From assembly GCA_910588015.1 (NCBI GenBank), contig CAJUOK010000003.1:48193-112192 (forward strand): a stretch of DNA of 64,000 nucleotides. Reading direction: 5' to 3'. This document shows positions 3,367-31,409 of this stretch, one piece after another; the stretch's first letter is position 1; the number at the start of each line of letters is the position of its first letter. This DNA is from an uncultured Christensenellaceae bacterium. GTDB lineage: Bacteria > Bacillota > Clostridia > Christensenellales > UBA3700. Both the position numbers and the translations under genes were made by a program. Under the pieces are notes generated by a model. It was given only the letters and a program-made list of their open reading frames with translations. It ran no database searches and was not told the origin of the DNA.

Positions 3367-3699
3367 TCACAAAATGGCGTTTCTGTCGGCAATAACTACT
3401 TTAATCTCTTTTAGTATTTCTTCTGCGTGAGCGTCGGGTTTGCCGTCGGAGGCAACCAAAGCTCTTTTTAGACTTATAATTTGCTTATTTATGGATTTGT
3501 CGTACTCTACAACCTGCGATTTGTCGGAAGGACGCAGATACTTGAGTTGCTCTGCCGTAGCTGCAAGCTTTTCTTTAAACTCTTGACTGTCGCTTATCTC
3601 CTCTATTGCCACGTTGATAAACGACGCGTTGGTCGCGATAAGTTCTCTGTCTTCCTTGATTTTGTCTAAAGAATTGCCTCTCTTTTTGAAAAAACACAT
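3367..3699 (-). CDS. Hypothetical small protein (110 aa), likely co-transcribed with the flanking genes.
   Basis: ORF in track; 10-20 nt gaps to both neighbours on the same strand. Confidence 0.4.
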   Translation of the reverse strand: MCFFKKRGNSLDKIKEDRELIATNASFINVAIEEISDSQEFKEKLAATAEQLKYLRPSDKSQVVEYDKSINKQIISLKRALVASDGKPDAHAEEILKEIKVVIADRNAIL

Positions 3700-3709
3700 A
3701 TCCGCCTCC

Positions 3710-4735
3710 TTAAATCAACTTTCTGCCGCAACCGCAGCAAAACGCCGAATCATAGCCGTTGGCTTTGCCGCAATCGGGACAAACCACGGGATTTTTGCTT
3801 ACTCTCTTGCCGCACTTGGAGCAAAATACCGCCGTAGGCTCGTGCTCCGCTCCGCAATGCGGACAGACGTTTTGGTTTTGGGACTTTTCGTCTTTTGCGT
3901 TTTGCGATTTAAGCACTTCGTAGTAAGCAAGTTTGTCGTTGAGCTGCATATTGCGAATATACTTTTCTCTCTCCCACTGCTTGTCGTCTATACGCTCTTC
4001 TTCTTTGTATATCTTTTCGACTTTTGCCGCCGCAGCCTCCGCTTGAGCAACGCTTTCGATAGCGCGCACGTCCTCGTCGGACAAATCAAAGTCGGCTATC
4101 TTAAAATTGAGCACGCTCAATCCCCACTGTCTTTCAAACTCGGGACTCAACGCTTCTCCCATACTCTCTCCGATTGCCTTTTTGTTGGCGGTGAATTTGT
4201 CGTAAGTGAGTTTCTTTTGGCTCACCGTGTTTATGAACAAATCGGCGAACTCCGTTGCCACAGTCTCGCTGAACCTGCGTCTGAATTCGTTGAGATTGAA
4301 TTCTTTTTTTACTCCGACGACTTTGCGGAAAAACTGTTCGGGATTGGAGACGCACACGTCGAACTCGCCTCTGGCGCCCACCGAAACGACCTTTTTAGAA
4401 CCTTCGTCGCGATACTTCAGTCTGTTGGGAGTACCCCACTTGATGAGCACTCTGGTATCCTTGGGAATATAAATAACCTCGACCGAAAGTCCCGACTTCC
4501 AATTCTTAATCTCCTTTTTGTCGTCGAAAACGTCGTAAGTTCCACTCTTGTAATATCTCATATCGCCGCCGCCCTTTATGACTATGGCGTCGTGAGTGAT
4601 AGGCACTTCGAGACGCGCTTCCGAATCGGTGACTACGTCGTCGACTCTTACGAAAAGCACTTCGTTGTCGTCGAAATTTGCGTTGCAAAGGTCTTGTTGC
4701 AATTTGATTACCTGTTTTTGTTTTTTACCAAACAT
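3710..4735 (-). CDS. SPFH/band-7-like protein (COG4260-type) with C-terminal tandem zinc ribbons.
   Basis: 341 aa; C-terminus CPHCG...CSKCG...CPDCG...CCGCG gives four CxxC pairs. The N-terminal 250 aa resemble stomatin/SPFH-with-Zn-ribbon proteins. This call is from recall, not a database search. Confidence 0.45.
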   Translation of the reverse strand: MFGKKQKQVIKLQQDLCNANFDDNEVLFVRVDDVVTDSEARLEVPITHDAIVIKGGGDMRYYKSGTYDVFDDKKEIKNWKSGLSVEVIYIPKDTRVLIKWGTPNRLKYRDEGSKKVVSVGARGEFDVCVSNPEQFFRKVVGVKKEFNLNEFRRRFSETVATEFADLFINTVSQKKLTYDKFTANKKAIGESMGEALSPEFERQWGLSVLNFKIADFDLSDEDVRAIESVAQAEAAAAKVEKIYKEEERIDDKQWEREKYIRNMQLNDKLAYYEVLKSQNAKDEKSQNQNVCPHCGAEHEPTAVFCSKCGKRVSKNPVVCPDCGKANGYDSAFCCGCGRKLI

Positions 4736-4865
4736 ATTAATATCCCCGATATTTTATTATTATTTTCAAACGATTTAGACGGCAATTTCAACTTGCATAT
4801 CGCATAAAGTTGAGACTGTCCGGCTTTTTACATTAACGCAATATAAGTCTCGCTGATAATTTATT

Positions 4866-5072: not shown

Positions 5073-5156
5073 ATTCTCTCGCCTATGTATAGGCGTCCTT
5101 GCCTTCGCGCAAAATACAGAACATATCAATTCTCTTTGCGCGCGGTCTTGCAAATT

Positions 5157-5393
5157 TTATTGCGCGGAGTTTTCGTCTGAATCTTCCTGTTCTTTTTCGG
5201 TAGCCGCCGTGTTTCCGCTTGCTTTGCCGCCGTTCTTTTTGAGAATTCCCGCTACAGCGAGCGCTCCCAAAAATCCCGTGACAATCTCCTGTATTAAAGG
5301 CACGTTGAATTTCAGCGCTACGCTCTGCAATATTGCCATAACGGCGCTTATCAACGATACCCAAAATTCATAACTCTTGAGTTTGGCTTTCAT
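5157..5393 (-). CDS. Holin, SPP1/XhlB-like (78 aa from the ATG at 5393; the track ORF starts earlier at 5432).
   Basis: MKAKLKSYEFWVSLISAVMAILQSVALKF...GALAVAGILKKNGG plus a charged C-tail. AGGAGG RBS 5 nt upstream of the ATG at 5391-5393. Two predicted TM segments. Confidence 0.5.
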   Translation of the reverse strand: MKAKLKSYEFWVSLISAVMAILQSVALKFNVPLIQEIVTGFLGALAVAGILKKNGGKASGNTAATEKEQEDSDENSAQ

Positions 5394-5665
5394 ACGACCT
5401 CCTTTGCCGCGCAATTGACTTTGTCTTGACATAGACTTTCTTCTCTCGCCGAATTTTCCATATACTTGCGAACTGTTCCGTTGACTTCGGCGACTTCTTC
5501 GTCGAGGTCTTTTAAATATCCGAGGTCTTGCGAAAGCGACGTTATCGTTTCTTGATACTTTTTTTCTCTCGTTCTGCTGTCTTTAAGCTCATAGATAAGC
5601 AACACGCAAAACAAAAGCGTCCAGATTCCGTCGCTTATCGCAAGCTCTATAATCTTATCCCACAT
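5390..5665 (-). CDS. bhlA: BhlA/UviB-family holin-like protein.
   Basis: MWDKIIELAISDGIWTLLFCVLLIYELKDSRTREKKYQETI matches the BhlA/UviB N-terminal TM plus coiled-coil pattern. Confidence 0.65.
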   Translation of the reverse strand: MWDKIIELAISDGIWTLLFCVLLIYELKDSRTREKKYQETITSLSQDLGYLKDLDEEVAEVNGTVRKYMENSAREESLCQDKVNCAAKEVV

Positions 5666-5666
5666 A

Positions 5667-6668
5667 TCAATTCTCCTTCTTGGCTATCTCGGTGATAAGT
5701 TTGCCGTAGTAATTGCCGAGATAGTTTTTCAACTGTCCGTTCTGTTGTAGCATTTGCAACGCGGCGTCTCGCGGTATCGACGAATAATACTCCAACGCAA
5801 GGTCGTATCTCTTTTGATAACTCTCGCCTTTTTGTCCGGCATAGCCGTATTTGTCTTCCATATTCTTGATTTCCAAAGCGTCTTTTTGCCTTTTGGCAAG
5901 CTGTTCTTCTATGGCTTTGGTTCTGTCTTCTATATACTTGGCTTCTTTTTCTTTGAGCGTATTGTTGTACTTGTCTATAGCCGCCACTTCTTTGGCTCTC
6001 TTGTCGAGCAAGCGCTCTATTTCGCTGTCGAGACGTTGAGCGTATTCCAAATCGAGATTTTGAATCGCCGTCGCCGCCTCTCCCTGCAATCTTTCAATTT
6101 CGGAATTTAGATTTTTGAGCTCCGCGCTCAATTTATCCTTAAGCGATTTGCTTTCGACTAGGCGCGAAGTTTCAGCGGCGTCGCTCTGACCTTGTTTTAT
6201 AGAAGAACGGTAAAGTCCTTTTTTGATAAGTTCTTTTTCCAATGCCTTTTGAAAATCCGCATAGTCTCTGTCTAGTTGCTCTTGCTTTTGACTATACTCG
6301 TCTTTGGCTACGTCTATCTTGGTTTCGACTCCCTCTTTCTTGGTATTCAAAGCGTCGTCGACTTTTTTCTTTTCGCCGTCAAGCAAGCCGTCGTATTTTT
6401 CTTTGGTTTTGCTCTTTATTCCCTCTTCGTCGTCGCCCGTATATTGCAGATACTCGAAAGTCTGCTCTTCTGGCAACACGTCGGAGAGGTCTTCATATCC
6501 CTCTTCGGGGTCGTATTTTATATTGTTTTTATATTCTTCTTCAAGCTCTCCAAGCTTGTCGTTAAGCTGTTTTTCTCCGTCGGCATACTGCGAAGTATCG
6601 ACTTCTTCGGGGGTCTTTTTTCCCGTAAAAAATTCTTTGACTTTTTTTGTAAAATCGTCCCAACTCAT
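5667..6668 (-). CDS. Coiled-coil, Glu/Lys-rich hypothetical protein (333 aa), phage late region.
   Basis: ORF in track; low-complexity coiled-coil composition. Confidence 0.4.
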   Translation of the reverse strand: MSWDDFTKKVKEFFTGKKTPEEVDTSQYADGEKQLNDKLGELEEEYKNNIKYDPEEGYEDLSDVLPEEQTFEYLQYTGDDEEGIKSKTKEKYDGLLDGEKKKVDDALNTKKEGVETKIDVAKDEYSQKQEQLDRDYADFQKALEKELIKKGLYRSSIKQGQSDAAETSRLVESKSLKDKLSAELKNLNSEIERLQGEAATAIQNLDLEYAQRLDSEIERLLDKRAKEVAAIDKYNNTLKEKEAKYIEDRTKAIEEQLAKRQKDALEIKNMEDKYGYAGQKGESYQKRYDLALEYYSSIPRDAALQMLQQNGQLKNYLGNYYGKLITEIAKKEN

Positions 6669-6692
6669 ATTTAACTCCTTATATTTATGAAT

Positions 6693-7064
6693 TCATTGGC
6701 TTACTTTGGCTGACCTGATTGCGCCGCTCAAACGAATACGCCCCGCCGTTATTCCTCCCGATAGAGCTATCTCTACGTTTCGCCAACCTCTTTCCAAAGA
6801 CAGCGGTCGAATGGTTATCAATCCCAATTGTCTGCCTGCGTTTTTGCCGTCGACAGTCACGTCGCATTGAGCCTCTCCGCCCTGCGACAGCGCTATTGCT
6901 TCAAGCTCCGCCTCGCCGCCTTGAGAATAAACGCGAAGACTTATCTTGCCTGCTCCGTCCGTCAACGGCATAACGAAATAATACGAGGATATTGCCGACG
7001 CAATGTGTCTTTCCAAACTGTCGGATAAATCTGCGACGGTCGATTGGATTTTCTTTATATTCAT
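6693..7064 (-). CDS. Hypothetical phage protein (123 aa).
   Basis: ORF in track, in a tight same-strand series. Confidence 0.35.
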   Translation of the reverse strand: MNIKKIQSTVADLSDSLERHIASAISSYYFVMPLTDGAGKISLRVYSQGGEAELEAIALSQGGEAQCDVTVDGKNAGRQLGLITIRPLSLERGWRNVEIALSGGITAGRIRLSGAIRSAKVSQ

Positions 7065-7073
7065 AATCTCTCC

Positions 7074-8501
7074 TTATTGCAAAAAATCTATCTCGAGTAT
7101 CGGCGGTCTTATCTCTTCGCGCATATTGTCGGAACGAATATAGAATACGAATTTGTCAGACTTGACGTATATATTTACTCTGTTTTCCGTAGGCGACAGG
7201 ATAAATTCGCGCCGCTCCCCGTTTGCCATTATTCCAAGCACGTACTGACAGCAAGCGCTGTATTCCACCGCTCTCACGACTTTAAAAATCGACGGTCTGT
7301 CAAAGTCTATCTCGCCGCTCTGCCAGTATTTTTGATACGGCGCGCCGAAATAAAGTCCGCTGCCGTCCAACTGAACGGGCGAAGCGCAATCTTGCGAAAG
7401 TCCTATGACTTTTCCCTCTCCGTAAGCCCCCACCGTCTTGAGGTCGTAGAGAGATATTCCGCGCATAAATTCCACAGATTTTTCGGCTATGTCCAATATC
7501 AAAATTGTGTTGTTGGCGCGACTTTGCGAAAACACTCCGTAGTCGCACTCTTTCTCGTCTGTAAACGACATTATATAGCGACCGTGGGCGTAACACGCCG
7601 ACGCGTCTTTGAATCCGCCGTCGAACAAACCGTCAACTCCGACGTTGATTTTCGTCACGGCATATCCGTCGAAAAGATATATCCCGTCTTGGCTTGCAAA
7701 GGCTATGTATTCGCCGCATTCTTTGACCGAATCGGCAAATATCTTCCCTCCCGACGCATATACTTTCTTCATAGAAAACTGCGTTTGGTCGGCAAATGCC
7801 GTCAACCTGTAAATGCCGTAATCGCAAAAGATATAGAGATAATTTTCAAAGCTCTTGACGGTGTTGACGCTGCCCAAAGAACCGTCGAAATTTATGTAGC
7901 CGCCTTCTTCCAGTGAAACGTTCCAATTATAAGGGTCGAAATCGTCGCTGAATCTCAAAGAATTTCGCTTTCCCTCGACGACGGCGTATATTCTCTCGTA
8001 ATGAACGCACATATCCAGTATGCGCGCGTCGGCTTGAACGTCGACCAACTCTCCGTCGGCAAGAGCTTTGAGTCCCTTCTCTCCCGAAAGCAAGAGCAAG
8101 TCTTTATCTTCGTAAAGATAATTGACTCCCACGTCGAATATTCCGTCGGTCTCTATATGCTTCCATTGAGTCTCTCCGCAAACCGTATATTCCAATCCCC
8201 CTCGGTGAGACAGCGCAAAAGCCGTTTTGAGTTGTCCGCCCAAGTCGACTTTGGTAACAAAAAGCCTTTTTTTGCCTTCGACTGACGGCATCGGCGGAAT
8301 CGCCGTTTCGTCGACTTCCAACGCGCTTATGCCCAACGGATTGATTAGAATTCCGTTTTTGAATTTAAAATTATACGCGCAATCTACGTAATCGCAAGGC
8401 AGATTTCTCGACGCCTTTGTTTCGTCGAAGCCCTTGAACCCGGACAGCAAAACTCTCTTTCGCCGAGGCTTGGCAAGAGCGTAATTTTTGTCGTAAAACA
8501 T
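7074..8501 (-). CDS. Hypothetical beta-rich phage structural-like protein (475 aa); possible receptor-binding or tail-fibre protein.
   Basis: Repeated G-x-Y-x-F-D-G-like segments (YINFDGSLG, YLFDGYAV, GLFDGGFKD). Lies between a holin pair and small phage-like ORFs. No domain recognised with certainty. Confidence 0.35.
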   Translation of the reverse strand: MFYDKNYALAKPRRKRVLLSGFKGFDETKASRNLPCDYVDCAYNFKFKNGILINPLGISALEVDETAIPPMPSVEGKKRLFVTKVDLGGQLKTAFALSHRGGLEYTVCGETQWKHIETDGIFDVGVNYLYEDKDLLLLSGEKGLKALADGELVDVQADARILDMCVHYERIYAVVEGKRNSLRFSDDFDPYNWNVSLEEGGYINFDGSLGSVNTVKSFENYLYIFCDYGIYRLTAFADQTQFSMKKVYASGGKIFADSVKECGEYIAFASQDGIYLFDGYAVTKINVGVDGLFDGGFKDASACYAHGRYIMSFTDEKECDYGVFSQSRANNTILILDIAEKSVEFMRGISLYDLKTVGAYGEGKVIGLSQDCASPVQLDGSGLYFGAPYQKYWQSGEIDFDRPSIFKVVRAVEYSACCQYVLGIMANGERREFILSPTENRVNIYVKSDKFVFYIRSDNMREEIRPPILEIDFLQ

Positions 8502-8502: not shown

Positions 8503-9054
8503 TCAGTACCACCTTCTGGGTTTAATTTTGACGTTGCCCTTTTTTCTTACCGCAGTGCGCATATCTTCTTTGAATCTATCCGAATACATAACCGATTGCT
8601 CATACATTCCGCAAATCATACTGTATTCGGCGCATATGCCCAAAGCCAACGTCTTTGCGCCCACCGTCGGAGATATAGGACATTCTTCTTCGATATCTAC
8701 CTCCAACGGCGCGTAAGAATAAAGTACGTCTGCTCTTTTCATATCCTTGTTGGCAACGGCGCAATGCGTCGGCGTGAGATAAAAATTGGATTCCAATCCG
8801 CTGTCAGCGTCTACGACTTTGCGAATTTGCGCAGACTTGTGAAGCAAATTTTCGAGAAAAATTTTTCCGTCATCAACATCCACTCTCTCTTCTTCAAGCA
8901 AAGGCGCATACTCCGCGGCTATTTCTTGGATGACCAAATTGGCGCACTTGACAAGTAATTTCAGCTTGGGATGCTGCGCCGTTTGAGCGTTGACGCTCGC
9001 GTCTTCGTCGCCGAGATACGTCAGGCAAATCCTTATAGCTTCTTTGAGTTGCAT
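8503..9054 (-). CDS. Hypothetical phage protein (183 aa).
   Basis: ORF in track; stop/start abutting its neighbour. Confidence 0.35.
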   Translation of the reverse strand: MQLKEAIRICLTYLGDEDASVNAQTAQHPKLKLLVKCANLVIQEIAAEYAPLLEEERVDVDDGKIFLENLLHKSAQIRKVVDADSGLESNFYLTPTHCAVANKDMKRADVLYSYAPLEVDIEEECPISPTVGAKTLALGICAEYSMICGMYEQSVMYSDRFKEDMRTAVRKKGNVKIKPRRWY

Positions 9055-9069
9055 ATTCCCTCCTCAAGG

Positions 9070-9384
9070 TCACAGGCGCAGACCGCCCATAGCCTTTTCT
9101 ATTATTTCTTGCCTTTTTTGTTCTTCGACGCGGGCGTTGTTGGCGTCGATTTGCGCAAGTATCTTTTCTTTGTTTTTTACACTGCTTTGCACTGCAAAAT
9201 CCAACGCCCTTTTGTCGAGATTCTTATAAGGCAAAACTGCTTGAAAAGACGGAGACTTTGCCGAATTGTGCAATTCGTATCTGCAAGTTCCCCTGTCGTA
9301 ATAGATTTTGTAATTTTCGTCTATGCTCTTTATTCTTGCCGATATATCGAACAAATCGTCGGTTATCTCCGTCAGTCTTTCCAT
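9070..9384 (-). CDS. Hypothetical protein (104 aa).
   Basis: ORF in track. Confidence 0.35.
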   Translation of the reverse strand: MERLTEITDDLFDISARIKSIDENYKIYYDRGTCRYELHNSAKSPSFQAVLPYKNLDKRALDFAVQSSVKNKEKILAQIDANNARVEEQKRQEIIEKAMGGLRL

Positions 9385-9399
9385 AATTGCCTCTTATTT

Positions 9400-9615
9400 T
9401 CAGCTCACGGTGATACCGCTGAGTTTTGCCTGACCGATAGGCTTATCGCATATCATATCGGCGTACTTGACGAGAGTTGCACCGTAAGTTGCGCTGCCCG
9501 CCTTTTGCTTGATGACTTTGCCGTTGTCGCCCTCGAGCCACCGCTTGACCTGTGAGAAGTCTAAACAGAAATAAGGGCGATAGATAAAGGTAAAAACGGG
9601 CATCTCCCACCCCAT
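9400..9615 (-). CDS. Hypothetical small protein (71 aa or shorter); first gene of the late-like fragment.
   Basis: ORF in track; follows a strong terminator. Confidence 0.25.
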   Translation of the reverse strand: MGWEMPVFTFIYRPYFCLDFSQVKRWLEGDNGKVIKQKAGSATYGATLVKYADMICDKPIGQAKLSGITVS

Positions 9616-9621
9616 AAAAGT

Positions 9622-9652
9622 CTAGAAAAAACAAAAAAGGCTGCCCAAGGGA
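9622..9652 (-). terminator. Strong rho-independent terminator ending the cargo operon (minus strand: AGGCTGTCCC-TTG-GGCAGCCT followed by TTTTTTGTTTTTT).
   Basis: Read directly from the reverse complement of 9622-9652; it starts 17 nt after the stop of the 470-aa gene. Confidence 0.6.
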
Positions 9653-9668
9653 CAGCCTAAATTGTGAT

Positions 9669-11081
9669 TTATTTCTTATAAACAGAGAGAGTTTTCGTAA
9701 TATCGGAAGTGAGGTTTTTGCCACTCCTCTTTTTGTCGCTCGATGTTTTTGCCAAGCTGAACCAATATTTACTGCCTTTATAAACCAGTTTGTAGTGGGT
9801 ATTATCGCTCGTAATTTCAAACCCCACACGCTTTAATTCAGCCAGCTCTTTTGCGGAAAGTTCCTCGCCATCCGCAAAGACGGACTTTACCACATCGAGC
9901 ATTTCCTTGCCGTTTCCTATTATTTTATTATGCGCCAACAGGTCAGTTATAAGCTCTTTCTGCCGAGTGTCTTTTGAACCGCAGTTCGACAGTGCCTTCT
10001 GCAAAATCGACACAAGCAAATCGTGCTGTTCACCATCAAAGAACTCTGGAATGGATGAAGGTTCTATTATCGTCTGCACCGCTTCGCTTTTTGTGAGCGC
10101 AGTTTGGAGACTGTTGCACTTTGCGGTCAAAGACATATTTTCTTGAACCAAGGCAGCAATTCTCGCCTCCGCCTTTTTTAATTTTTCATCTAGGGTTTCG
10201 TTATCACCAAGTGCTTCTTCTGCCAAGGCTGCACTCTCTTTCGCTTCCTTTCGAACTTGCTCGGCGTGTAATGCTTCCCATGTAGGCGCATCCGTATCCA
10301 CGGCAGAAGTTACAAAACGCTGAACTTCATTTGCTATCTGCTTATCAAGGGGCGCGCCCAGGTATGCATTCCGCTTCCGAAACTGTCTAGGTCTTCCGCC
10401 CTTGGTGTAAATACAAACTGCACCATTGAAGGGTGTTGCGTGGTTTGCCCTATCTTTCAAAAGCCGAGTGTATTCGTTATCGCAAACCACCACATACGCA
10501 AACCCCGCAAGTTTCTTTGACAGCGTATATTCCTCTATTTCCGTTGCCCGTGTATCGAAGTATGTAGTAGCTAAAACCAACGGAAGCTCATCGTCATATT
10601 CTTCCCGTATTGCTCCCGCTATCCAGTCTATCAGCTCATTCGTAGGTTCAACGGGTTTTGAAGTTATAGGTACTTTCGGCTGTTTAAGGAAGCCGCTATC
10701 AACGAAGGAGCGTATAACATCCGTGCGCATCTCGGGAGCTTCGTCAAAACGAGTAGCATCACGGGAACAGTCAATGTGGAAATAAACTATCTTTCCAACG
10801 GAACTGCATTCAAAGATAATCTCCGTAGTCCAAGTCTGCTCGTGGAACACTTGAGCAATCTTGAAAAGCGTGTAAACTTTTCCGTCTTTTTCTATACGGG
10901 AAGTGTCCGCCGTGCAATACTCCGCTTCCAAGTGTACACCGATTTTATCAGCGCAGGCTTCAAGTTGCTCTGCCACTGCCTTGCACGGTCCAGCCTCTGT
11001 CAACCACTTATTAATAATATTGAAATACTCGCTTTCGGAAAAGGAGTCGACCATTTTAACTTTCGTAGAAACTACACGCAT
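9669..11081 (-). CDS. Hypothetical protein (470 aa), no recognisable domain; start overlaps the stop of the RNase III-like gene.
   Basis: ORF in track; acidic coiled-coil segment in the middle; last gene before the terminator. Confidence 0.5.
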   Translation of the reverse strand: MRVVSTKVKMVDSFSESEYFNIINKWLTEAGPCKAVAEQLEACADKIGVHLEAEYCTADTSRIEKDGKVYTLFKIAQVFHEQTWTTEIIFECSSVGKIVYFHIDCSRDATRFDEAPEMRTDVIRSFVDSGFLKQPKVPITSKPVEPTNELIDWIAGAIREEYDDELPLVLATTYFDTRATEIEEYTLSKKLAGFAYVVVCDNEYTRLLKDRANHATPFNGAVCIYTKGGRPRQFRKRNAYLGAPLDKQIANEVQRFVTSAVDTDAPTWEALHAEQVRKEAKESAALAEEALGDNETLDEKLKKAEARIAALVQENMSLTAKCNSLQTALTKSEAVQTIIEPSSIPEFFDGEQHDLLVSILQKALSNCGSKDTRQKELITDLLAHNKIIGNGKEMLDVVKSVFADGEELSAKELAELKRVGFEITSDNTHYKLVYKGSKYWFSLAKTSSDKKRSGKNLTSDITKTLSVYKK

Positions 11082-12137
11082 CAGTCGTTCCTCGCGTTCT
11101 CGTGATTAAGAATGGAGCGGAGCATTTCGTATGCGGCTAACCGTTTAGCTTCCTTTTTCGAGCTTGCTTCATCATAATAGCAATCTTCATATTCTTCAAT
11201 ACTACATTCGCAAGTCCATACGGGATTACCATCGTCATCGTGGTCTTCTTGGAACTCATAAATAGGAAAAGAGAAATACCCCTTTTGTGCAAGCTCCTGA
11301 AGCTGACTCACTGCCTTCTCGAGAGTGGGTTCATCAATTTCATCTTCCATCGTCCGAAGCAAACCTTGCTCGTCCAAGTAATCATACGCAAGCTCTGCCG
11401 CAGCCATTCTTGCCAGGCTCTTGGAATACCCAAAGCCAACAAACGGCGCACCATTATCTATGCGTAATTCACAAACGATATCCCCTTCGCCTTGCTCCAT
11501 ACGCCTTCTAGTTCCAACTTGTATAGAGCGCATATTGCAGTGATATTCATACCTTGAATTATAGAATTTATAAAACGGCAACTCTCCTACACGCTTCTGC
11601 TGCCACTGCTGAATAATGGAAACATAATCCTGGTCTGTGCCGAAGCCATTTTCCAAGTAACAATCAATGTGGAGCATCATTTCTACCGCATCTTGCATTG
11701 AATCCATATCCCAATCACTGTCAAGGGCAACTGCGCCGAGTATGGCTTCAAACAAGTCCTCTTTTACATTCGTTTTGGACATTATTTTTTCTGTCCCCCT
11801 TGCCCATTATCAAATAATCTGTAAAACCCATCTCATCAATGCGTTCTGCCAACATCTTACTTTCCACAAGGTGCTTCTTGAACTCCGTGAGCTTCCCCTC
11901 ATTGTGTTCACACTCGTACTCTTTGCCATCGTTGATTTCGCCGTAATACTCCGTCAAAACCTTAACGATTACCAAGTCGAGAACCTTATCGCCTATAAAC
12001 TCCAACACTTCATTGTTTTCGCCATCGTGCGTTTCTTGCGTATAACTTTTCCGCGTAAACGCTTGCTGCAACAACAATCTGTTCTTGAACTCGTACCCGA
12101 TTTGTGATTCAATTTCATCGTACTGTTCATCCTTCAT
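11081..12137 (-). pseudogene. rnc-like: RNase III homolog (catalytic domain plus two dsRBDs) split into two overlapping ORFs (11748..12137 and 11081..11782) by a frameshift at a T6/A6 homopolymer (11785-11790).
   Basis: N-ORF: IGYEFKNRLLLQQAFTRKSY...NEVLEFIGDKVLDLVIV is the RNase III signature, ending ...GKGDRKNNVQ. C-ORF: KEDLFEAILGAVALD is the second catalytic motif, followed by two dsRBD motifs (GFGYSKSLARMAAAELAYDYL and EASSKKEAKRLAAYEMLRSI). Removing one A from the A6 run joins the frames with the expected motif spacing. Confidence 0.6.
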
Positions 12138-12399
12138 AATAAAAATACCTCCTGTGTTTTTTCACAGAGGGCATAGAAAGAGCCTGACGAAATATAGACT
12201 ACGCCCTTGTAGCCTCGCCAGGCATCCACTCGATAAATGGTGTTATATAAATCACTCGTCCTTGATTCCAGTCACTTGCATAACAGGTCACAAATCCAAT
12301 ATGCTTTACATCCAACTATTTATGTCGCAATGCCTTCTCTGTACTTTCATTATATCAAACTCGACATAATCCGTCAAGGGGTATGTGCCATATTTCTCA

Positions 12400-12448
12400 A
12401 AATGTAAAAAAGTAAACGTCAAAGGAGTCGGCATTTCTGTCGACCCCT
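12400..12448 (-). terminator. Putative terminator after gene 12470..12949 (minus: AAGGGGTCG-loop-CGACTCCTT followed by a T-rich tract).
   Basis: Imperfect stem around the SalI site, followed by TGACGTTTACTTTTTTAC on the minus strand. Confidence 0.3.
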
Positions 12449-12469
12449 TCTTCATCTTTATGTATGACA

Positions 12470-12949
12470 TTAAAAGTATTCGATGCTGTCCAAGAACTCC
12501 TTAACGTTCGGCATTTCTAAAACCTCAAAGATAGTTTTAGAAAAACTTCCTTTCCTGTTTGCCATCAACTGAACGCTGACAGACACTTGGTTTTGGTTGA
12601 GTTTGTTGCGAGGGAAGTCATACCGTTCTTCGTACATATCACTGTATGCGCCACCATAATAATGCACCGATAACGCTGTACCCTTTCCGCGGGTAATAGG
12701 TTTGAAATCGCCTTTTATATGCAAATCGCAATCTCCTGCAAATTCCTCCATAGCTTCCTTTGCGGTCAACTCGGCATTTTCAAATTCTATGTCGATATAA
12801 ATTATTCCACCTTTTACTACCCGCTTATCCGACTTAAACTCTAGCAGATGCACTCCACAACCCGTAGGCTGAAGAGTAAGGTAAAAATCTTCGGGCAACG
12901 CAAACGAGATGTTTGATGCCACCAATTTACCATTTTTTACTCTTACCAT
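12470..12949 (-). CDS. Hypothetical protein (159 aa).
   Basis: ORF in track. Confidence 0.4.
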   Translation of the reverse strand: MVRVKNGKLVASNISFALPEDFYLTLQPTGCGVHLLEFKSDKRVVKGGIIYIDIEFENAELTAKEAMEEFAGDCDLHIKGDFKPITRGKGTALSVHYYGGAYSDMYEERYDFPRNKLNQNQVSVSVQLMANRKGSFSKTIFEVLEMPNVKEFLDSIEYF

Positions 12950-13094
12950 TTGTGATACTCCATTTTCGATAAAAACAGTCAGGGTTCGATATTCTTTCTC
13001 TTTCTGAAACTATCGCATTTTGATATAATTATTACAATCAGTATCTTCTCCCGCCGTCATTACTCTTTGGCGGCTTTTTTGCTGTTATCGAACG

Positions 13095-13337
13095 CTACAC
13101 AACTTCTGTGACAGTGAGTTGGAACACCTGCCCGTTTTCCATCCTCATCAACACACCCTTTGTGTTCTTCGCAAAAGTGCCGCAAAAATAGTCATCCAGC
13201 AACGGATAAATCTGCATTGCTAAATCAAACCCGTTGATTTTAGTACCTTGCATCGCTGTCTCAAACTGCTCTTTGTCTTCTTCGGTGTGAATGTAAGGTT
13301 TTCCTTCCATAACCTTTAACTCCTTAATTTTATTCAC
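13095..13337 (-). CDS. Hypothetical small protein (80 aa), divergent from the HTH regulator.
   Basis: ORF in track. Confidence 0.35.
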   Translation of the reverse strand: MNKIKELKVMEGKPYIHTEEDKEQFETAMQGTKINGFDLAMQIYPLLDDYFCGTFAKNTKGVLMRMENGQVFQLTVTEVV

Positions 13338-13360
13338 TTTTTTGCGCGCTTCAAGTGTAC

Positions 13361-13408
13361 TTCAATTATACTCTCCCATCGGCGTAACACGCAACTGAAA
13401 ATTGCGCA
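13361..13408. promoter_or_regulatory. Nested inverted repeats: a 9-bp perfect IR (CTCTCCCAT ... ATGGGAGAG) enclosing a CGCAA-N9-TTGCG IR. Candidate operator in the divergent promoter region.
   Basis: Read directly; located 38 nt upstream of the HTH regulator start. Confidence 0.4.
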
Positions 13409-13445
13409 AATGGGAGAGAATAAAATGTAGAAAAAGGACTAGTTT

Positions 13446-13889
13446 ATGGATAATTTGTCGAAACTCTCTGAAATGCTCGATTCGCTAATGTTCGAGCGCG
13501 AATTAAACCTTACGCAACTTGCCAAAGAAATAGGTATCGAAAAAGCAACCTTGAGCCGTTACCTTCACGCTTTAATGACGCCTTCCGTTGAAAATCTCGT
13601 GAAGTTAGCGGATTATTTTCAATGCACTACTGATTACCTATTGGGGAGAGAAAATGAAAACTATCCCTCTGCTTTCAAGCCGTGTCCACCGTTTTCAGAA
13701 CAGTTACTTGTATTGAAAAAACACTTTAACTGCCCTTGGTGGAATTTCTACAAAACCGCGCACATTTCAAGTTCTCGCTTTTATGAGTGGAAGAACGGCA
13801 AACGCACACCAACCCTAGATTGCATAATTTTTCTAGCAGATGGTTTCGGCTGCACTGTGGATTTCATCATTGGAAGAACGAAAATGTAA
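13446..13889 (+). CDS. Transcriptional regulator with two tandem XRE-type HTH domains.
   Basis: LTQLAKEIGIEKATLSRYLHA...VENLVKLADYFQCTTDYLLG, and a second HTH (ISSSRFYEWKNGKRTPTLDCIIFLADGFGCTVDFIIG). It is the only plus-strand gene inside the minus-strand island. Confidence 0.6.
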   Translation: MDNLSKLSEMLDSLMFERELNLTQLAKEIGIEKATLSRYLHALMTPSVENLVKLADYFQCTTDYLLGRENENYPSAFKPCPPFSEQLLVLKKHFNCPWWNFYKTAHISSSRFYEWKNGKRTPTLDCIIFLADGFGCTVDFIIGRTKM

Positions 13890-13901
13890 CTATAGATTTC
13901 T

Positions 13902-13950
13902 AGCCGTGATAAGGGGTGCTTAATCCTCTTACCACGGCTTTTCTTTCTAA
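13902..13950 (+). terminator. Rho-independent terminator after the HTH gene (AGCCGTG ... CACGGCT with a nested stem, then TTTTCTTTCT).
   Basis: Read directly. Confidence 0.45.
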
Positions 13951-14112
13951 TTCCCTTTCCACTCCACCAGATAAATCTGTATGCAGGCTGACATATAGGG
14001 CGGATGTTCCCTGTGGTTTCTTGGGCGTGGATATTTGCACTTACCACGCAGCTCCGGTGCCTTTGGAAAGGGTTATATACTCGCCGTGCAAAGCGAATAT
14101 AGCAAATTTTAC

Positions 14113-14283
14113 TTATCCATCACCTTCATTGACATTATCTTTTTTTTCGATTTCTTTATCAATCGCTTCATCGGCTTTCTTTCTGTTCATTTCCATAAAA
14201 ACTGACACAAGCAGGTCAACAAACGCTTCTTCCGAATTTGGATTATGAAACCGAAAATTAAATTGCTGTTTTTCCTTTTTCAT
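14113..14283 (-). CDS. Small ORF (56 aa), translationally coupled (ATGA) to the macrodomain gene stop.
   Basis: ATG at comp. 14281-14283 overlaps the TGA of the upstream gene. Below the 60-aa track cut-off. Product MKKEKQQFNFRFHNPNSEEAFVDLL... Confidence 0.25.
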   Translation of the reverse strand: MKKEKQQFNFRFHNPNSEEAFVDLLVSVFMEMNRKKADEAIDKEIEKKDNVNEGDG

Positions 14284-14762
14284 AATTTCCAAATTTCAAC
14301 CTGCCACTCATCTTCGGCAAACTCTTCTTCGATTATTCTCTGTACTTTTATCCAATCTCCGCCCGCAAGTCCACATCCAATATGGTCTGGAAATCCAATC
14401 TTAAACCCCTTGCCCCCAAACTTGCCGTGCGCTGAATTATAATCGTTGATTTCCGTTTTCAGCTCAATTAAGCATTTTCGGAAAGCATCGTAATCGGTAT
14501 GAATCACACCCCTGGGTCTATAATCAAACTGCGAATATAGATTAATAATGAAACGGAATTCTTGTTGAATATAAACTACATCAATCTTCCCGAGCCGATT
14601 CCCCTTGGAAGCAAACGAAGTCATAAAAACATCGTAAACCTGTGGATATTTATTTCGTATAGCTTTTGCGATGCCAGCGTTCATCACCCCTTTGCAGTTT
14701 ACCTGGTGGCATATTACATTGCAGTCGCTTGCAAGTAAATCTCCCCTTTTATACGAAACCAC
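14280..14762 (-). CDS. Macrodomain protein of the TARG1/OARD1/DarG type (ADP-ribosyl hydrolase-like), stand-alone.
   Basis: GDLLASDCNVICHQVNCKGVMNAGIAKAIRNKYPQV and IGFPDHIGCGLAGGDW align with TARG1 [27 protein letters not shown]...PRIGCGLDRL. The likely true start is a GTG at 14760-14762, 6 nt after an AAGGAGG RBS; the track ORF extends to 14828. Confidence 0.75.
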   Translation of the reverse strand: MVSYKRGDLLASDCNVICHQVNCKGVMNAGIAKAIRNKYPQVYDVFMTSFASKGNRLGKIDVVYIQQEFRFIINLYSQFDYRPRGVIHTDYDAFRKCLIELKTEINDYNSAHGKFGGKGFKIGFPDHIGCGLAGGDWIKVQRIIEEEFAEDEWQVEIWKL

Positions 14763-14763
14763 T

Positions 14764-15189
14764 TCAATCCTCCTTGGATTCCCACTCTTCTTTATAATAC
14801 CGAATATAGTCCGCCACAAGACGCGCATTAGTTGGCAATGCTGCCCTACACACCTTTTTAAATAGTTCTACGGCTCTTGCATCAAAACAAAAGCCCAGTA
14901 AGCCGTCCAGAAGCCTTGAGACTTCTTCCTCGTCCACTTTATCGCTTCTGCCCAAACGAAGGCACACGTTGGCAACTGTCGGCTCATAAAGCGACACAGC
15001 GGTTTCAACTAACCTTGACCTATTTTCTAGCAGCACTTTGATTTTATTAAGCGCCGTATAAAGACCATAGTTGAAATCGCTATCGGTTGCAGATGTGGAC
15101 TTTTCTCTTTCGATTTCTTGACTCAAATTTTCAAGTACACCAACTACTATTTTTATATTTTCATCTTGCATATTAACCTTGCCGATCAC
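14764..15189 (-). CDS. Hypothetical helical protein (141 aa), coupled to its neighbours.
   Basis: ORF in track; ATGA overlap with the upstream gene; stop is 1 nt before the macrodomain GTG. Confidence 0.4.
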   Translation of the reverse strand: MIGKVNMQDENIKIVVGVLENLSQEIEREKSTSATDSDFNYGLYTALNKIKVLLENRSRLVETAVSLYEPTVANVCLRLGRSDKVDEEEVSRLLDGLLGFCFDARAVELFKKVCRAALPTNARLVADYIRYYKEEWESKED

Positions 15190-15701
15190 CCGTGCAACAA
15201 CTTGTACACTGCATCGAATAAAACACCAAATGTCTCGTTCGTTAACGGGAGCGAAAGCACACGCTCCCCAATTTTGAATTCCACTTCAGATTTCGACTTA
15301 ACCTTTGCTCCTTCTCCAAACTGATGGTTTATCTCATCCAAGTAATCCACAAATGCTTCAAGTTCCTTTTGCTTTTCAATAGTTAGTCCTCGCATATTTT
15401 CTCCTCCATATTTCTTTTTTAATTCTTCAAATACAACTTCGCCGGGGATTAATCGCCCCGCTTTGACCTCATCCATTCCCTTCATTAATTTTTTGTATAA
15501 ATCCACCCGTTCCAAGACTTCCTCTGGCGGAAGTTTAATTGCGAACGGAATACTGCGTGTGTACACAACTTGATAAAGATAAACGGCTATTCCTGTATCA
15601 AGCGATAAGCCAAGCTCCGTGAATATTGTTTTCGCAAGCTCAAGCATATGCTTGTCAATTGTAAAAGTAGCCTTCGTTTTTTCGTTATCCTTCATTCTCA
15701 A
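15186..15701 (-). CDS. Protein with an N-terminal RelB/DinJ-type antitoxin domain and a C-terminal extension (171 aa).
   Basis: ATFTIDKHMLELAKTIFTELGLSLDTGIAVYLYQVVYTRSIPFAIKLP matches the RelB/DinJ ribbon-helix-helix consensus. No cognate toxin gene is adjacent. Confidence 0.5.
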   Translation of the reverse strand: MRMKDNEKTKATFTIDKHMLELAKTIFTELGLSLDTGIAVYLYQVVYTRSIPFAIKLPPEEVLERVDLYKKLMKGMDEVKAGRLIPGEVVFEELKKKYGGENMRGLTIEKQKELEAFVDYLDEINHQFGEGAKVKSKSEVEFKIGERVLSLPLTNETFGVLFDAVYKLLHG

Positions 15702-15987
15702 CCTCTCCTATAATCTCGAATTCCCCCTCGGAATATGTTACGGGACTGAATACAGATTTTCCAAACCCACTATTCCCCATTCGATGTAAATCAACTTCCT
15801 CGGCAACGAAAACTGGCACATATTGTGGGGTATTCTGCTCATACGGAAGAATGATTGCTGAAATCGAAACATAACCTTCAACGACTTTATAACCATCCGC
15901 ACTAACGGGTTCAGACGAAGTTGTGAAGGCATCTCGTGCCTTTACCCTTGCCCGATACTTTTTGATTGTCTTTCCATTAATCGTCAC
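15685..15987 (-). CDS. Hypothetical protein (100 aa).
   Basis: ORF in track; overlaps the downstream gene by 17 nt. Confidence 0.35.
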   Translation of the reverse strand: MTINGKTIKKYRARVKARDAFTTSSEPVSADGYKVVEGYVSISAIILPYEQNTPQYVPVFVAEEVDLHRMGNSGFGKSVFSPVTYSEGEFEIIGEVENEG

Positions 15988-15999
15988 TGCCGTACTCTC

Positions 16000-16665
16000 C
16001 TAATCGGTAATATAAATAAAGCATTTATCTCTGTTCCGCTCGTAAACGAGGAAAGGAATCTCCGCTTTAGCCAACATCTCGTTATTCACTTTTTCATAAT
16101 TGTAGGTTTGAAACCCAGGGTATAACTTTATCAATCTATCCCTTGCCTCTTTTGCGCAAAAGAAATCGGTTGTGTCATCTGCATCAAACAGCTCTTTGAA
16201 CTTGACAAGCAAGCACGGAATTTCAATGACCTCCATAAATCTCTGCTCTTCGTCAACACTGATACGCTCTTCCTTTTCGCCATCTACATAACAAATCTTT
16301 CTCCCATTCATCCAACGAAAATGAACCTTGTTAGATTTTATGCTCTCATCAGAGAACCCAAGAAACTTGTACATTTTTTCTCTGTTGATTTGGCTGATTT
16401 TTACTACCTTTTCCGAAAAAACATCCCTGGGGATTTTCGCTATGCTCTCATCCTTCAAATGAAACCGCATGATAGAATACGGGTTAAATTCGTCCCAATT
16501 ATGACCGTCTCCAAGCAATCGCTCATCATCGGAAACATTAAAATATTTAACCTTTTCCAATTCGGCTGCGGACAGCTTTTCAAATTTATAAATGTGGATA
16601 TCAACACTCATTTTTAATCGTCCTCCACGACAAGCACGTTGATAATTCCGCTGTAATAGGTACAA
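16000..16665 (-). CDS. Hypothetical protein (221 aa; the start may be the internal Met at about 16611).
   Basis: ORF in track. Confidence 0.4.
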   Translation of the reverse strand: MYLLQRNYQRACRGGRLKMSVDIHIYKFEKLSAAELEKVKYFNVSDDERLLGDGHNWDEFNPYSIMRFHLKDESIAKIPRDVFSEKVVKISQINREKMYKFLGFSDESIKSNKVHFRWMNGRKICYVDGEKEERISVDEEQRFMEVIEIPCLLVKFKELFDADDTTDFFCAKEARDRLIKLYPGFQTYNYEKVNNEMLAKAEIPFLVYERNRDKCFIYITD

Positions 16666-20911: not shown

Positions 20912-21565
20912 ATGGCAAACGAAATAAAAAGCACAACCCCTGACAAAACCGATAACCTTGATGCAACCGAGATTGAACTAGTCAATAAATTTAACGAAAT
21001 AGCAAGAACCCCACAATTATTTTTTTCAGCAGATACCTCGTCCGAACGGGCAAAGAAAATCGCACAACACAAAGTGTGGTTGAGTAGCATCCGTCACGAG
21101 TTCCCTAGCCCCGCCACTCATTTTAAGGTCGGTGTTTATATTCGTTATTTCAACCAAACCAAGTACGATGATTACTTGGAAACCCATAAGGCTATGTTTA
21201 TGGACGCCATCTCGCTCTGCCCCAACTGGGAGTTCGTTGGCTACTACATTGATGAAGGATCAACTGCACCCAATATGGAAACCGCTGCCGAATGGTCTCG
21301 GCTTCTCAACGATGCCACGGAAGGAAAGGTTGATTTAATCATCACCCAAAAAGTCTCCAATGTATCAAAGAAAATTCACGAAGTTACCCTTTGCGCAAGA
21401 TTGCTTGCTGCAATGGAACACCCCGTTGGTATCTACTTCCTTTCCGAAGATATTTATACCTTGGCTTCGTATTATCAACACGATTTGAGAGATACATTCT
21501 TTTTACCCAATAACGACACGGAGGCGTTGCCCGAAGGAACAGATAAAAAAGGCTTACTGAAATGA
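20912..21565 (+). CDS. Resolvase-catalytic-domain paralog lacking the catalytic serine; predicted inactive.
   Basis: KVGVYIRYFNQTKYDDY...CPNWEFVGYYIDEGS...GKVDLIITQKVSNVSK aligns with the next gene (RVGIYVRVSTDDVRQ...HPNWTLIKIYPDEGISG...GKLDLIITKSVSRFARN). The motif Ser is replaced by Phe and the SRFAR motif is lost. ATGA overlap with the recombinase start. Confidence 0.55.
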   Translation: MANEIKSTTPDKTDNLDATEIELVNKFNEIARTPQLFFSADTSSERAKKIAQHKVWLSSIRHEFPSPATHFKVGVYIRYFNQTKYDDYLETHKAMFMDAISLCPNWEFVGYYIDEGSTAPNMETAAEWSRLLNDATEGKVDLIITQKVSNVSKKIHEVTLCARLLAAMEHPVGIYFLSEDIYTLASYYQHDLRDTFFLPNNDTEALPEGTDKKGLLK

Positions 21566-26590: not shown

Positions 26591-28114
26591 CTATTTCTTT
26601 CCCCAGACCTTCTCATAAACCACTTCGTCTATCTCATCCTCCTTGTTGTGATAGTAATAAGTTTTGACCTTGGCAACTTGCCCGTTTGTCAATAAAAACT
26701 CAAAGTTCTCTCTGCCATAAATTGTTATCTTCTTGACAACTGCCTTGAAGATTTCAGGATCGAACTCCGTCAACTCGGTTGGTCGCATAATAACCTTGTT
26801 ATATCTTCGTAGGTCGTTTTCGGCTTCGATATTCATAGCATTTGTACGCAGCAGTTCCTTTCGCCTATCTTCCGCTCTGACGATTTGATTCAACAGTCGG
26901 TTATACTCGCCCTCCACAGGCCCCTCCAACAGCCCCTTGGCTTGAAGTTGAAGGTATGTGCGTTCCTGTGCAAGAAGCCTATCCAACTCGGCGTTAAACG
27001 CCACCAGTTCGCCCGACAAAGGCATCTCTACCAACCGCCGTTTTGTCCCTCGTAAGTCATTGAAAATCCTTATAAAAATGTTCTGCAATGTCTGCAACCG
27101 AACGCTAGGACTTTCACATTTTCGGAAACGCTCTTCATCGTGTCCACCGCAGACAAATCGATATTGCTGTCCATTTGTGAAACGCCTTGTGTAAGCGTGT
27201 CCGCACTTACCACACCGAATTGGAACTCCTTCAAGTGGGTTGTCCCCTTTCGGCTGAAAGACATCTACTTTCGTTTGCTTTTGCCTTACTTCATTTGCTC
27301 TTTCCCAAAGCTCCCTACTCACAATAGGCTCATGGTGGTTTTCAACATAGTATTGAGTTATCTGCCCCGTATTCTTTACCGCTCGACCATTCAGCAAGAC
27401 TCGCTTTTCCATCAAGCAGTCCCCTTTATACTTCTCATTCTTGATATAGTAAAGTATCGTTGAAGGCTTGAATGTTTTCCCCGTTGAGGTTCGTATGCCT
27501 TCTCGGTTCAGCTTTTGGCAAATAAGCGTGGAATGTCCCGTATCCGCATACTCTTCAAATATTCGTTTAATAATAGGCGCTTGAACTGGGTCGGGTACAA
27601 GTTCACCATACTCTAACTTATAGCCGTAGGGTGTGTTAGGGTTTAGTATCATCATCCCCTTTTCATACCTACGCTGAAACCCCCATCGTACCGATTCGGA
27701 AACATCCTCCGCTTCTTCCTGTGCCACGTGTGCCATTGTTACGAGTATGATATTATTCCTATCCTTAAGGGTATCAATGTTTTCTTGCTCGAAATAAACG
27801 GATACTTTTAGTTCTGTCAGCCGAGCGATGGCTCTCACGATGTCAAGCGTGTTCCTTCCAAATCGTTTGATTGACTTGCAGAGTATTCGATCTACAAGTC
27901 CCAGTTCACAATCGGTCAGCATTTGCAAGAAAGCCTCACGCCGATTCAAGTACCTACCGCTTATTCCGTTATCGACGTATATTCCGCAGTTAACCATATG
28001 CGGAGTCGTATCCATTACCTCGTTGAAGTGCCGAATTTGCGATTCCAGACTGACCGTTTGGTCTTCTGTACTAACTCTAACATACGCTGCCGTTCGATAT
28101 CGTTGTTCGCTCAT
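26591..28114 (-). CDS. Large serine recombinase C (507 aa), paralog of A.
   Basis: AAYVRVSTEDQ, KSIKRFGRN, zinc-ribbon recombinase domain (CGKCGH...C), C-terminal coiled coil. Confidence 0.8.
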   Translation of the reverse strand: MSEQRYRTAAYVRVSTEDQTVSLESQIRHFNEVMDTTPHMVNCGIYVDNGISGRYLNRREAFLQMLTDCELGLVDRILCKSIKRFGRNTLDIVRAIARLTELKVSVYFEQENIDTLKDRNNIILVTMAHVAQEEAEDVSESVRWGFQRRYEKGMMILNPNTPYGYKLEYGELVPDPVQAPIIKRIFEEYADTGHSTLICQKLNREGIRTSTGKTFKPSTILYYIKNEKYKGDCLMEKRVLLNGRAVKNTGQITQYYVENHHEPIVSRELWERANEVRQKQTKVDVFQPKGDNPLEGVPIRCGKCGHAYTRRFTNGQQYRFVCGGHDEERFRKCESPSVRLQTLQNIFIRIFNDLRGTKRRLVEMPLSGELVAFNAELDRLLAQERTYLQLQAKGLLEGPVEGEYNRLLNQIVRAEDRRKELLRTNAMNIEAENDLRRYNKVIMRPTELTEFDPEIFKAVVKKITIYGRENFEFLLTNGQVAKVKTYYYHNKEDEIDEVVYEKVWGKK

Positions 28115-28141
28115 TTCTACCTCCTATTTTTGGTATGACAC

Positions 28142-28170
28142 ACATTACCAAAATCACGCCATATAGTCCA
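28142..28170 (-). promoter_or_regulatory. Promoter of recombinase C: CGCTGGACT-N17-TAATGT.
   Basis: Same architecture as five other promoters in the window. Confidence 0.45.
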
Positions 28171-31384: not shown

Positions 31385-31409
31385 ATATCCTCCTTTTTTA
31401 GTATGACAC

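Follow-up and report, generated by a model that had tools for sequence, protein, structure and literature searches.

An RNase III gene with an additional double-stranded RNA-binding domain, apparently split by a 5-nucleotide deletion, and its HEC-07-related partner gene in a prophage-like element of a Christensenellaceae bacterium

The window considered here, a stretch of 64,000 nucleotides (nt) from an uncultured Christensenellaceae bacterium (assembly GCA_910588015.1, contig CAJUOK010000003.1, positions 48,193 to 112,192), carries on the minus strand of a small prophage-like element a two-gene cassette in which a broken RNase III gene is followed by the intact gene of a 470-residue partner protein (9669-11081 in the list of open reading frames, ORFs). 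The RNase III gene comes in two pieces. ORF1 (11748-12137, minus strand, 129 residues), recognised in the ORF list and by alignment, codes for the N-terminal fragment and carries E43, E46 and D50, within NNEVLEFIGD, together with E80. ORF2 (11081-11782, minus strand, 233 residues), recognised in the ORF list and by Pfam, codes for the C-terminal fragment, with D129 and E132 in the motif DLFE and both double-stranded RNA-binding domains (dsRBDs); its ATG lies 11 nt 3' of AAGGGGGA, a possible Shine-Dalgarno sequence. The coordinates bear out what a preliminary description of this DNA had stated, namely that the two minus-strand frames overlap by 35 nt and that a run of six A (T6 on the plus strand) lies close by, at 11785-11790. 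It was at this run that the preliminary description placed the interruption, naming sequencing or assembly error, recent inactivation, phase variation and programmed frameshifting as possible causes.

Alignment with close relatives puts the lesion elsewhere. In pairwise and multi-locus nucleotide comparisons, the window reads CAAAACGAATGTAAAAG where related loci read CAAAACGAAACCCATGTAAAAG, that is, it lacks 5 nt at 11768-11770 on the minus strand, either ACCCA or AACCC, the placement being ambiguous by one base. At the junction the deleted form is CGAATG and the intact form CGAAACCCATG. The deletion takes out parts of the Thr and His codons directly before KEDLFEAILGA, about 20 nt downstream of the A6 run, in non-repetitive sequence with no long homopolymer, and it leaves the RNase III gene of the window without an uninterrupted reading frame. 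That this deletion splits the gene, and that the homopolymer is not responsible, appears practically certain from these alignments.

One could suppose that loss or control of the reading frame takes place at the A6/T6 run, whether through a sequencing error in the homopolymer, through phase variation or slippage of transcription, or through programmed frameshifting, since removal of one A arithmetically fuses the two ORFs, as the preliminary description correctly saw, giving a 351-residue protein with RNase III domains across the junction. However, this fusion reads ...GDRKIMSKTNVKEDLFEA... where the intact protein, of 353 residues, has ...GDRKNNVQNETHVKEDLFEA..., and the true difference from the relatives is the deletion downstream of the run. 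Homologues align as ...GKGDRKNNVQNETHVKEDLFEAILGA..., and ORF1 tracks them beyond the run through NNVQNE, hence in the correct frame for five more codons (NNVQN), before the frame is lost and it ends in CKRGLV and a stop codon. Furthermore, in fifteen near-identical loci (L001-L011, L018, L019, L035 and L059) the run, A5 or A6, is in frame within an intact gene for the 353-residue protein, and locus comparison shows that the A5 variants result from a synonymous AGA>AGG substitution, with no insertion or deletion (indel). Relatives are all single intact ORFs, and indels create no polymorphism in the length of the run. With the lesion outside the homopolymer, the phase-variation, transcriptional-slippage and programmed-frameshift readings therefore lose their basis, and we regard any role of the run in the loss of frame as vanishingly improbable: the headline of a homopolymer-interrupted, possibly switchable gene is not supported. 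The refutation test that went with it, which looked for homologues that are also split, cannot be applied in that form, since the homologues are unbroken. There is a technical lesson in this case: that two frames can be rejoined at a homopolymer does not prove that the homopolymer is the lesion, and it is the comparison of near-identical alleles that settled the question.

We also considered, and rejected, a +1 frameshift of prfB type where ORF1 ends (AGAGGA-CUU-GUU-UGA). This stretch is no more than the conserved codons for EDLFEA in the wrong frame. Read from the sequence, shifting by +1 on the stop codon of ORF1 (GUU UGA A, with AGAGGA before it) would put VKEDLF out of frame, and the product would lack D129; the resemblance to prfB is therefore accidental.

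A different objection is that the 5-nt gap might be an artefact of assembly or sequencing, the gene being intact in the real genome. The comparison with related assemblies advocated by the preliminary description shows all fifteen near-identical loci to be intact, and the deletion allele is unique, with no other contig or called protein bearing it in very large collections. Exact look-ups of ORF1 and ORF2 retrieve neither of them as a called product from any part of the collection, and a search pattern accepting both alleles retrieves only the intact form from the metagenome collection and neither form from IMG/VR. All ten contigs with an identical 470-residue protein have the intact 353-residue RNase III gene; the intact GAAACCCATG, with the same A-run, is present in eleven loci and also in L035, while L018 and L019 encode an unbroken full-length match of 353 residues. 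All other bases of the gene are, moreover, identical to those of an intact allele. Within the gene, L001 (98% identical) differs from the window by a single 5-nt gap; L005 aligns over 11,540 bp with 1 mismatch and the same gap; L059, which was sequenced in an independent run and shares the downstream genes of the window, aligns over 12,319 bp with 1 mismatch and the 5-nt gap, so that once ACCCA is restored the gene of the window is identical to that of L059 with zero other differences.

These observations would fit an error in the window, but several points count against one. The site is neither a long homopolymer nor a repeat, and assemblies from short reads or HiFi reads do not typically err by a clean loss of 5 nt. 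Across the 16.1 kb for which near-identical loci are available, there are 40 homopolymer runs of at least 6 nt, none of which differs in length, and there is no other indel; the assembly is therefore not indel-prone. All told, the deletion is probably genuine, and an artefact is rather unlikely. We take the gap to be a private inactivation of very recent date, an error in the local assembly being the less likely alternative; of the causes offered at the outset, recent inactivation is thus the one favoured, whereas homopolymer error is weakened by the 40 runs of unvarying length. As a frameshift, it is an ordinary event: a single private deletion affecting one copy of a gene found intact everywhere else.

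What has been split is of more interest than the split itself. The intact gene is, as judged from sequence profiles and a predicted structure, that of a class-1-type RNase III in which the canonical dsRBD is followed by an extra, C-terminal one. Pfam, profile alignment, TIGR02191 and an AlphaFold2 (AF2) model here agree with the preliminary description, which had recognised an RNase III homologue with both signature regions and two dsRBDs. The rejoined protein matches PF14622 with 66.7 bits (cut-off 35) and PF00636 with 59.1 bits (cut-off 27), above the curated Pfam thresholds for the RNase III catalytic domain and in both cases across the ORF junction, and it matches the dsrm family PF00035 at residues 275-341 (E = 2.6e-16). 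In Escherichia coli RNase III, the acidic catalytic and metal-binding residues are E38, E41, D45, E65, D114 and E117. The catalytic Asp and Glu residues whose presence on alignment had been at issue are all six intact in the family studied here, as E43, E46, D50, E80, D129 and E132, invariant in 36 sequences; in the window, EVLEFIGD is encoded at 12011-11988, E80 at 11900-11898 and DLFE at 11758-11747. The family profile aligns end to end with RNase III structures of the Protein Data Bank (PDB) from Campylobacter (C. jejuni, E = 2.4e-24), Thermotoga (T. maritima), Aquifex (A. aeolicus) and E. coli, the last three being aligned to residue ~258, dsRBD included. In the AF2 model, of predicted local distance difference test (pLDDT) score 89.7, a catalytic domain (residues 1-165) precedes two alpha-beta-beta-beta-alpha modules, at residues 173-258 and 277-345. 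Profile alignment, TIGR02191 and AF2 identify the first module (residues 173-258 in the intact protein; 11369-11626, minus strand) as the canonical RNase III dsRBD, with a variable insert between beta1 and beta2. The second (residues 277-345; 11108-11314, minus strand), identified by Pfam dsrm and AF2, is the extra C-terminal dsRBD, with SKKEAKR and GNPVW motifs, and it has matches to the dsRBDs of TARBP2, PKR and Loquacious.

The family thus shares with bacterial class 1 RNase III (Rnc; TIGR02191, PF00636/PF14622 with PF00035) the same catalytic domain, with its NERLEFLGD-type and DxxE-type motifs and six acidic residues, followed by the canonical dsRBD. It differs in having the second, C-terminal dsRBD, an insert of about 15 residues in the catalytic domain and the variable insert of the first dsRBD. 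TIGR02191 aligns to residues 10-253 but scores 151 bits, below the equivalog cut-off of 166.25; the protein is therefore not the housekeeping rnc product, and its additional domain is the C-terminal one. Unlike housekeeping rnc, members of the family lie on prophages or genomic islands, in keeping with the phage or mobile-element origin first proposed for this gene, and are coupled to the 470-residue partner. A looser likeness links them to RNase III proteins of eukaryotic viruses and plants, such as the RNase3 encoded by SPCSV (sweet potato chlorotic stunt virus), which also combine an RNase III domain with dsRBDs and are virus-borne or tied to conflict between virus and host. Plants have RNase III-like proteins with two dsRBDs. 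However, no specific sequence relationship with these eukaryotic-virus and plant proteins was found, the best matches of the window family being bacterial, and the domain of life of the hosts differs.

More than 2,700 relatives of the rejoined protein were retrieved. The 120 best listed are nearly all single ORFs of about 325-396 residues with an RNase III domain and dsrm, the few shorter ones among them being on very short contigs, and the closest among the matches listed is 95% identical and 353 residues long. The ratio of nonsynonymous to synonymous substitution rates is 0.04-0.28, and the family is therefore under purifying selection. Literature searches on RNase III of phages or prophages, and on a part of RNase III in defence systems, yielded no relevant bacterial work and no description of this family. 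Among 50,697 GenBank records of deposited phage genomes there is no homologue of it: a protein search gave only distant rnc matches for the RNase III and none for the 470-residue protein, and a megablast of window positions 9000-13000 against the same records gave no match. We would describe the family, from its sequences and their contexts, as a large and uncharacterised one, apparently belonging to the prophages and genomic islands of gut Clostridia. In variants of 297 residues on viral contigs (L051-L054, e.g. 5908-6801 in L053), the middle dsRBD (residues ~166-255) is missing and only the C-terminal one is retained; tandem serine recombinases immediately precede these variants as well.

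The partner protein opens with a beta-rich N-terminal domain, continues with a thioredoxin-like domain without CxxC, a coiled coil (residues 268-330) and a helical region, and ends in a C-terminal domain that is putatively HicA-like (residues ~410-465, encoded at 9854-9687). It has no match in Pfam or NCBIfam, and Foldseek searches of its predicted structure against PDB and BFVD retrieve thioredoxin-fold matches only, with nothing at E <= 0.001 for the N- or C-terminal domain. A family profile search nevertheless reaches 1,864 clusters at E <= 0.001, most of them with the same full-length architecture. The clue to its identity comes from PADLOC, where residues 81-230 (10841-10392) match positions 105-258 of the 553-position profile of HEC-07 with E = 3.7e-9; relatives of the partner, retrieved with its family profile, reach E values as low as 4.3e-15, and their matches extend at most over HEC-07 positions 38-399, with none in the C-terminal third. 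On these profile matches, the partner is a relative of the defence protein HEC-07.

HEC-07 (Hma-embedded candidate 7) is a single-gene anti-phage system described as having AdoMetDC-like, thioredoxin-like and RelE-type RNase domains, and it was one of the candidates that protected E. coli from phages (bioRxiv 10.1101/2024.01.29.577857). The partner family matches it over the N-terminal and thioredoxin-like regions and the coiled coil that follows; as described for HEC-07, the second domain of the partner is thioredoxin-like and without CxxC, and in both proteins a small domain, in the partner putatively of RNase-toxin type, occupies the C-terminus. The difference lies in that last domain, which appears HicA-like in the partner and not RelE, no RelE match being found there in Pfam or PADLOC. 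In addition, the taxa differ, the partner coming from gut Clostridia, and most of its copies are preceded by an RNase III or double-dsRBD gene, whereas HEC-07 works alone; protection is known for the representative of HEC-07 tested in E. coli only.

As for the C-terminal domain, of 14 such domains taken from close relatives, 9 give a match to PADLOC's HicA-like model, the best at E = 1.5e-7, and distant members of the family have a HicA-like match at the C-terminus as well. AF2 predicts helix 410-419, strands 421-426, 429-434 and 440-444, and helix 447-465, in a block where pLDDT ranges from 59 to 84. At about 60 residues and with this predicted alpha-beta-beta-beta-alpha topology, the domain may resemble the HicA toxin; H429 is invariant in 29 sequences, and a weak alignment puts it on the histidine of Burkholderia pseudomallei HicA. 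Unlike HicA of HicAB, it would be part of a 470-residue protein and not a free toxin, and no HicB-like antitoxin gene was found among its neighbours.

The two genes look like one unit. As the preliminary description noted, the 470-residue gene begins at the RNase III stop codon, the two sharing base 11081 in TGATG (a 1-nt overlap), with GAGGAA 7 nt upstream. A consensus scan predicts a sigma-70-like promoter with an extended -10 element at 12349-12377 on the minus strand (TTGACG, 17 nt, TG-TATAAT; 11 matches out of 12). It is the best match within 9200-14200 and precedes the RNase III start codon by about 210 nt. The scan also predicts a strong intrinsic terminator at 9638-9658 on the minus strand, a 9-bp stem with 6 G-C pairs followed by a T run, 11 nt after the stop of the 470-residue gene. 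Bracketed exactly by these two signals, which are known from consensus scanning only, the RNase III and partner genes are probably co-transcribed and translationally coupled. A 159-residue ORF upstream was considered as a third member of the cassette and rejected, as it is conserved in the closest relatives only and lies upstream of the predicted promoter.

Between promoter and start codon runs a 5' leader (12138-12348, minus strand), recognised by RNA folding. The fold of 216 nt (12130-12345) has an energy of -59.9 kcal/mol (z = -2.57 against shuffled sequences), and a hairpin in it, CCUCUGUG-AAAAAA-CACAGGAGG (12168-12151, minus strand), would sequester by base pairing the AGGAGG at which ribosomes bind to the RNase III message. 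The rnc gene of E. coli is subject to autoregulatory cleavage; by analogy, this hairpin, together with a longer stem at 12215-12196, could be an autoregulatory cleavage target. Rfam, run over the whole window at gathering thresholds, returned nothing. At the other end of the cassette, near-identity between loci stops just beyond the predicted terminator. A mosaic (recombination) junction lies there, at 9426-9542: from 21076 down to the junction, ten loci share 98.2-99.9% identity with the window, whereas their genes downstream of it differ and are of structural type or of the host; the continuation found in the window is common only to L059-L061.

The association of the two genes extends well beyond this neighbourhood. 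The preliminary description had suggested looking for partner homologues adjacent to rnc-like genes, and the expectation holds in part: among loci found via the partner, 8 of the 14 that could be assessed have RNase III, or its dsRBD module, directly upstream. The pair is kept down to 39% identity for the partner and 63% for the RNase III, in L016, where it adjoins a cI-like regulator, AbiH and a TIR protein. In L036, from the IMG/VR prophages, the order is RNase III, partner and then a GmrSD enzyme. In prophages of IMG/VR, RNase III directly follows two tandem serine recombinases at the prophage end, and in L042 it is directly followed by non-phage sugar-metabolism genes, probably of the host. 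An instructive case is L026, where a 303-residue protein (5087-5998, plus strand) has a leucine-rich-repeat-like N-terminal domain instead of the RNase III catalytic domain and keeps both dsRBDs; a homologue of the 470-residue protein (6001-7401) comes right after it, making this a natural nuclease-less version of the pair. In that the nuclease domain is swapped while the dsRBDs and the partner are kept, L026 points to double-stranded RNA binding as the coupled function.

Other combinations are also met. In L014 (2383-4059) the RNase III is paired with a Thg1-like protein of 222 residues (3'-5' polymerase family), beside DpnI, Dnd and Mrr genes, and in L012 (8001-12692) it occurs with a 106-residue protein, a DUF2971 protein and a 631-residue protein. 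A partner homologue in L020 (5929-7410) lies beside a helix-turn-helix (HTH) gene and what by eye looks like a HipA-like kinase pair; another, in L030 (6001-7407), is flanked by ordinary chromosomal genes in a Christensenellaceae chromosome that is complete.

How might such a cassette work? We suggest that the window holds a copy, only recently inactivated, of a gene carried as prophage cargo. In its intact form, the 353-residue RNase III would be made together with the coupled 470-residue protein from their own predicted promoter. The RNase III/double-dsRBD protein would recognise or process double-stranded RNA made during infection, and it would gate or feed the HicA-like effector of the partner, a HEC-07 relative whose C-terminal RNase-toxin slot would be occupied by the HicA-like domain. 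In the window copy, the 5-nt deletion shifts the frame just before the second catalytic motif, so that the first four catalytic residues stay on the 129-residue fragment and D129, E132 and both dsRBDs fall on the 233-residue ORF; the nuclease would be knocked out, and the partner gene is intact. Taken as a whole, an account in which a prophage cargo gene has been freshly inactivated within a likely anti-phage defence cassette stands, in our view, at about even chances.

The functional half of this account deserves separate scrutiny. A prophage-borne anti-phage defence in which double-stranded RNA recognition is coupled to a HicA-like RNase is the likeliest of the functions considered but still a tentative proposal, to which we give a little less than an even chance; it is made because the partner matches HEC-07 and has its thioredoxin-like fold, because relatives of the partner match HicA-like models and because the family adjoins AbiH, TIR, GmrSD, Dnd, DpnI and Mrr genes and, in IMG/VR, the recombinases at the prophage end; the nuclease-less pair of L026 speaks for it as well. 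Some observations weigh against it. In 6 of the 14 assessable partner loci there is no RNase III directly upstream, the partner standing alone in L020 and L030, and the RNase III family also has other partners, in L012 and L014; functional coupling is therefore not obligatory. The HEC-07 match of the window partner itself is limited to residues 81-230, and its own C-terminal domain falls below the threshold of the PADLOC HicA-like model, which only relatives reach. With Pfam HicA_toxin, only 2 of the 14 C-terminal domains give a match, at E >= 0.11, and with the PDB HicA structure 6hpb the E value is 1.2, all of them insignificant.

Part of the evidence could indeed be turned around, if the cassette served the phage and not the lysogen, as an early RNA-processing or counter-defence function that trims phage transcripts or destroys double-stranded or guide RNAs of host immunity. 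The cassette has the orientation of the early lytic genes of its element; a DarG-like macrodomain protein and a NinI-like phosphatase with an RNA-ligase-type match, both encoded nearby, look like counter-defence or RNA-repair genes; one relative of the RNase III is paired with the Thg1-like protein, an enzyme of RNA 5'-end repair type; and RNase III silencing suppressors are known from eukaryotic viruses. A phage-serving role sits poorly, however, with a partner that has a defence protein as its homologue and a putative domain of toxin type, and whose family also occurs alone in chromosomes. Family members occupy cargo positions near integrases, beside restriction and abortive-infection (Abi) genes; a promoter and a terminator of its own are predicted for the cassette; and no homologue is present in the 50,697 deposited phage genomes. 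Service to the phage is the main functional rival of defence but, in our estimation, an unlikely role for the cassette.

Coming back to defence of the lysogen, a more specific and more speculative version can be formulated. The pair may be an undescribed two-component prophage defence, in which phage double-stranded RNA would be detected or processed and an mRNA-cleaving effector would respond. The pair of dsRBDs, and not the nuclease, would then be the indispensable sensor, in line with the L026 variant, and ORF2 of the window could still supply a fragment that binds double-stranded RNA. We hold this version to be doubtful as it stands. If it were true, the two-component system would be a bacterial counterpart of antiviral immunity triggered by double-stranded RNA; more generally, if the pairing is a defence system, it would link the recognition of double-stranded RNA to RNA cleavage of abortive-infection type in bacteria. 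The gene family and its partner represent an uncharacterised variant of RNase III and of HEC-07-like defence proteins. It deserves attention: gut Clostridia (Christensenellaceae with their relatives) have thousands of prophage and island copies of this RNase III and its additional dsRBD, and many members are coupled to a large unannotated family (~1,900 clusters), related to a validated defence protein and bearing a putative toxin-type RNase domain at its tip.

The window itself comprises two integrative elements side by side, at about 4.9-23.5 kb and 26.6-63.5 kb. The first, small and prophage-like, has a serine integrase (21562-23469) with an integrase-like ORF of 217 residues upstream of it, and the cassette lies about 9 kb from this integrase and from a cI/cro-like pair. 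The second, a prophage, contains three serine recombinases in tandem (26591-31411), tail, capsid, portal and TerL genes, a Dcm methylase and a PriCT/AAA primase. Searches of Pfam and NCBIfam gave no match for the proteins of 159, 183 and 104 residues that neighbour the cassette. The DarG-like macrodomain protein, of 182 residues, is encoded at 14280-14828 on the minus strand (PADLOC E = 3e-17; PHROG 335, E = 1e-42). No DarT toxin was recognised among the scanned genes that neighbour it, and the gene may be a phage anti-DarT counter-defence. It belongs to a 3-kb block (13029-16009), together with a divergent HTH gene of 147 residues (13446-13889), that is absent from the otherwise collinear L001. 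At the far end of the first element, a plus-strand ORF (3614-4807) without family match overlaps the gene of a 341-residue SPFH/Band-7 protein (3710-4735, minus strand), which ends in a C-terminal double zinc ribbon.

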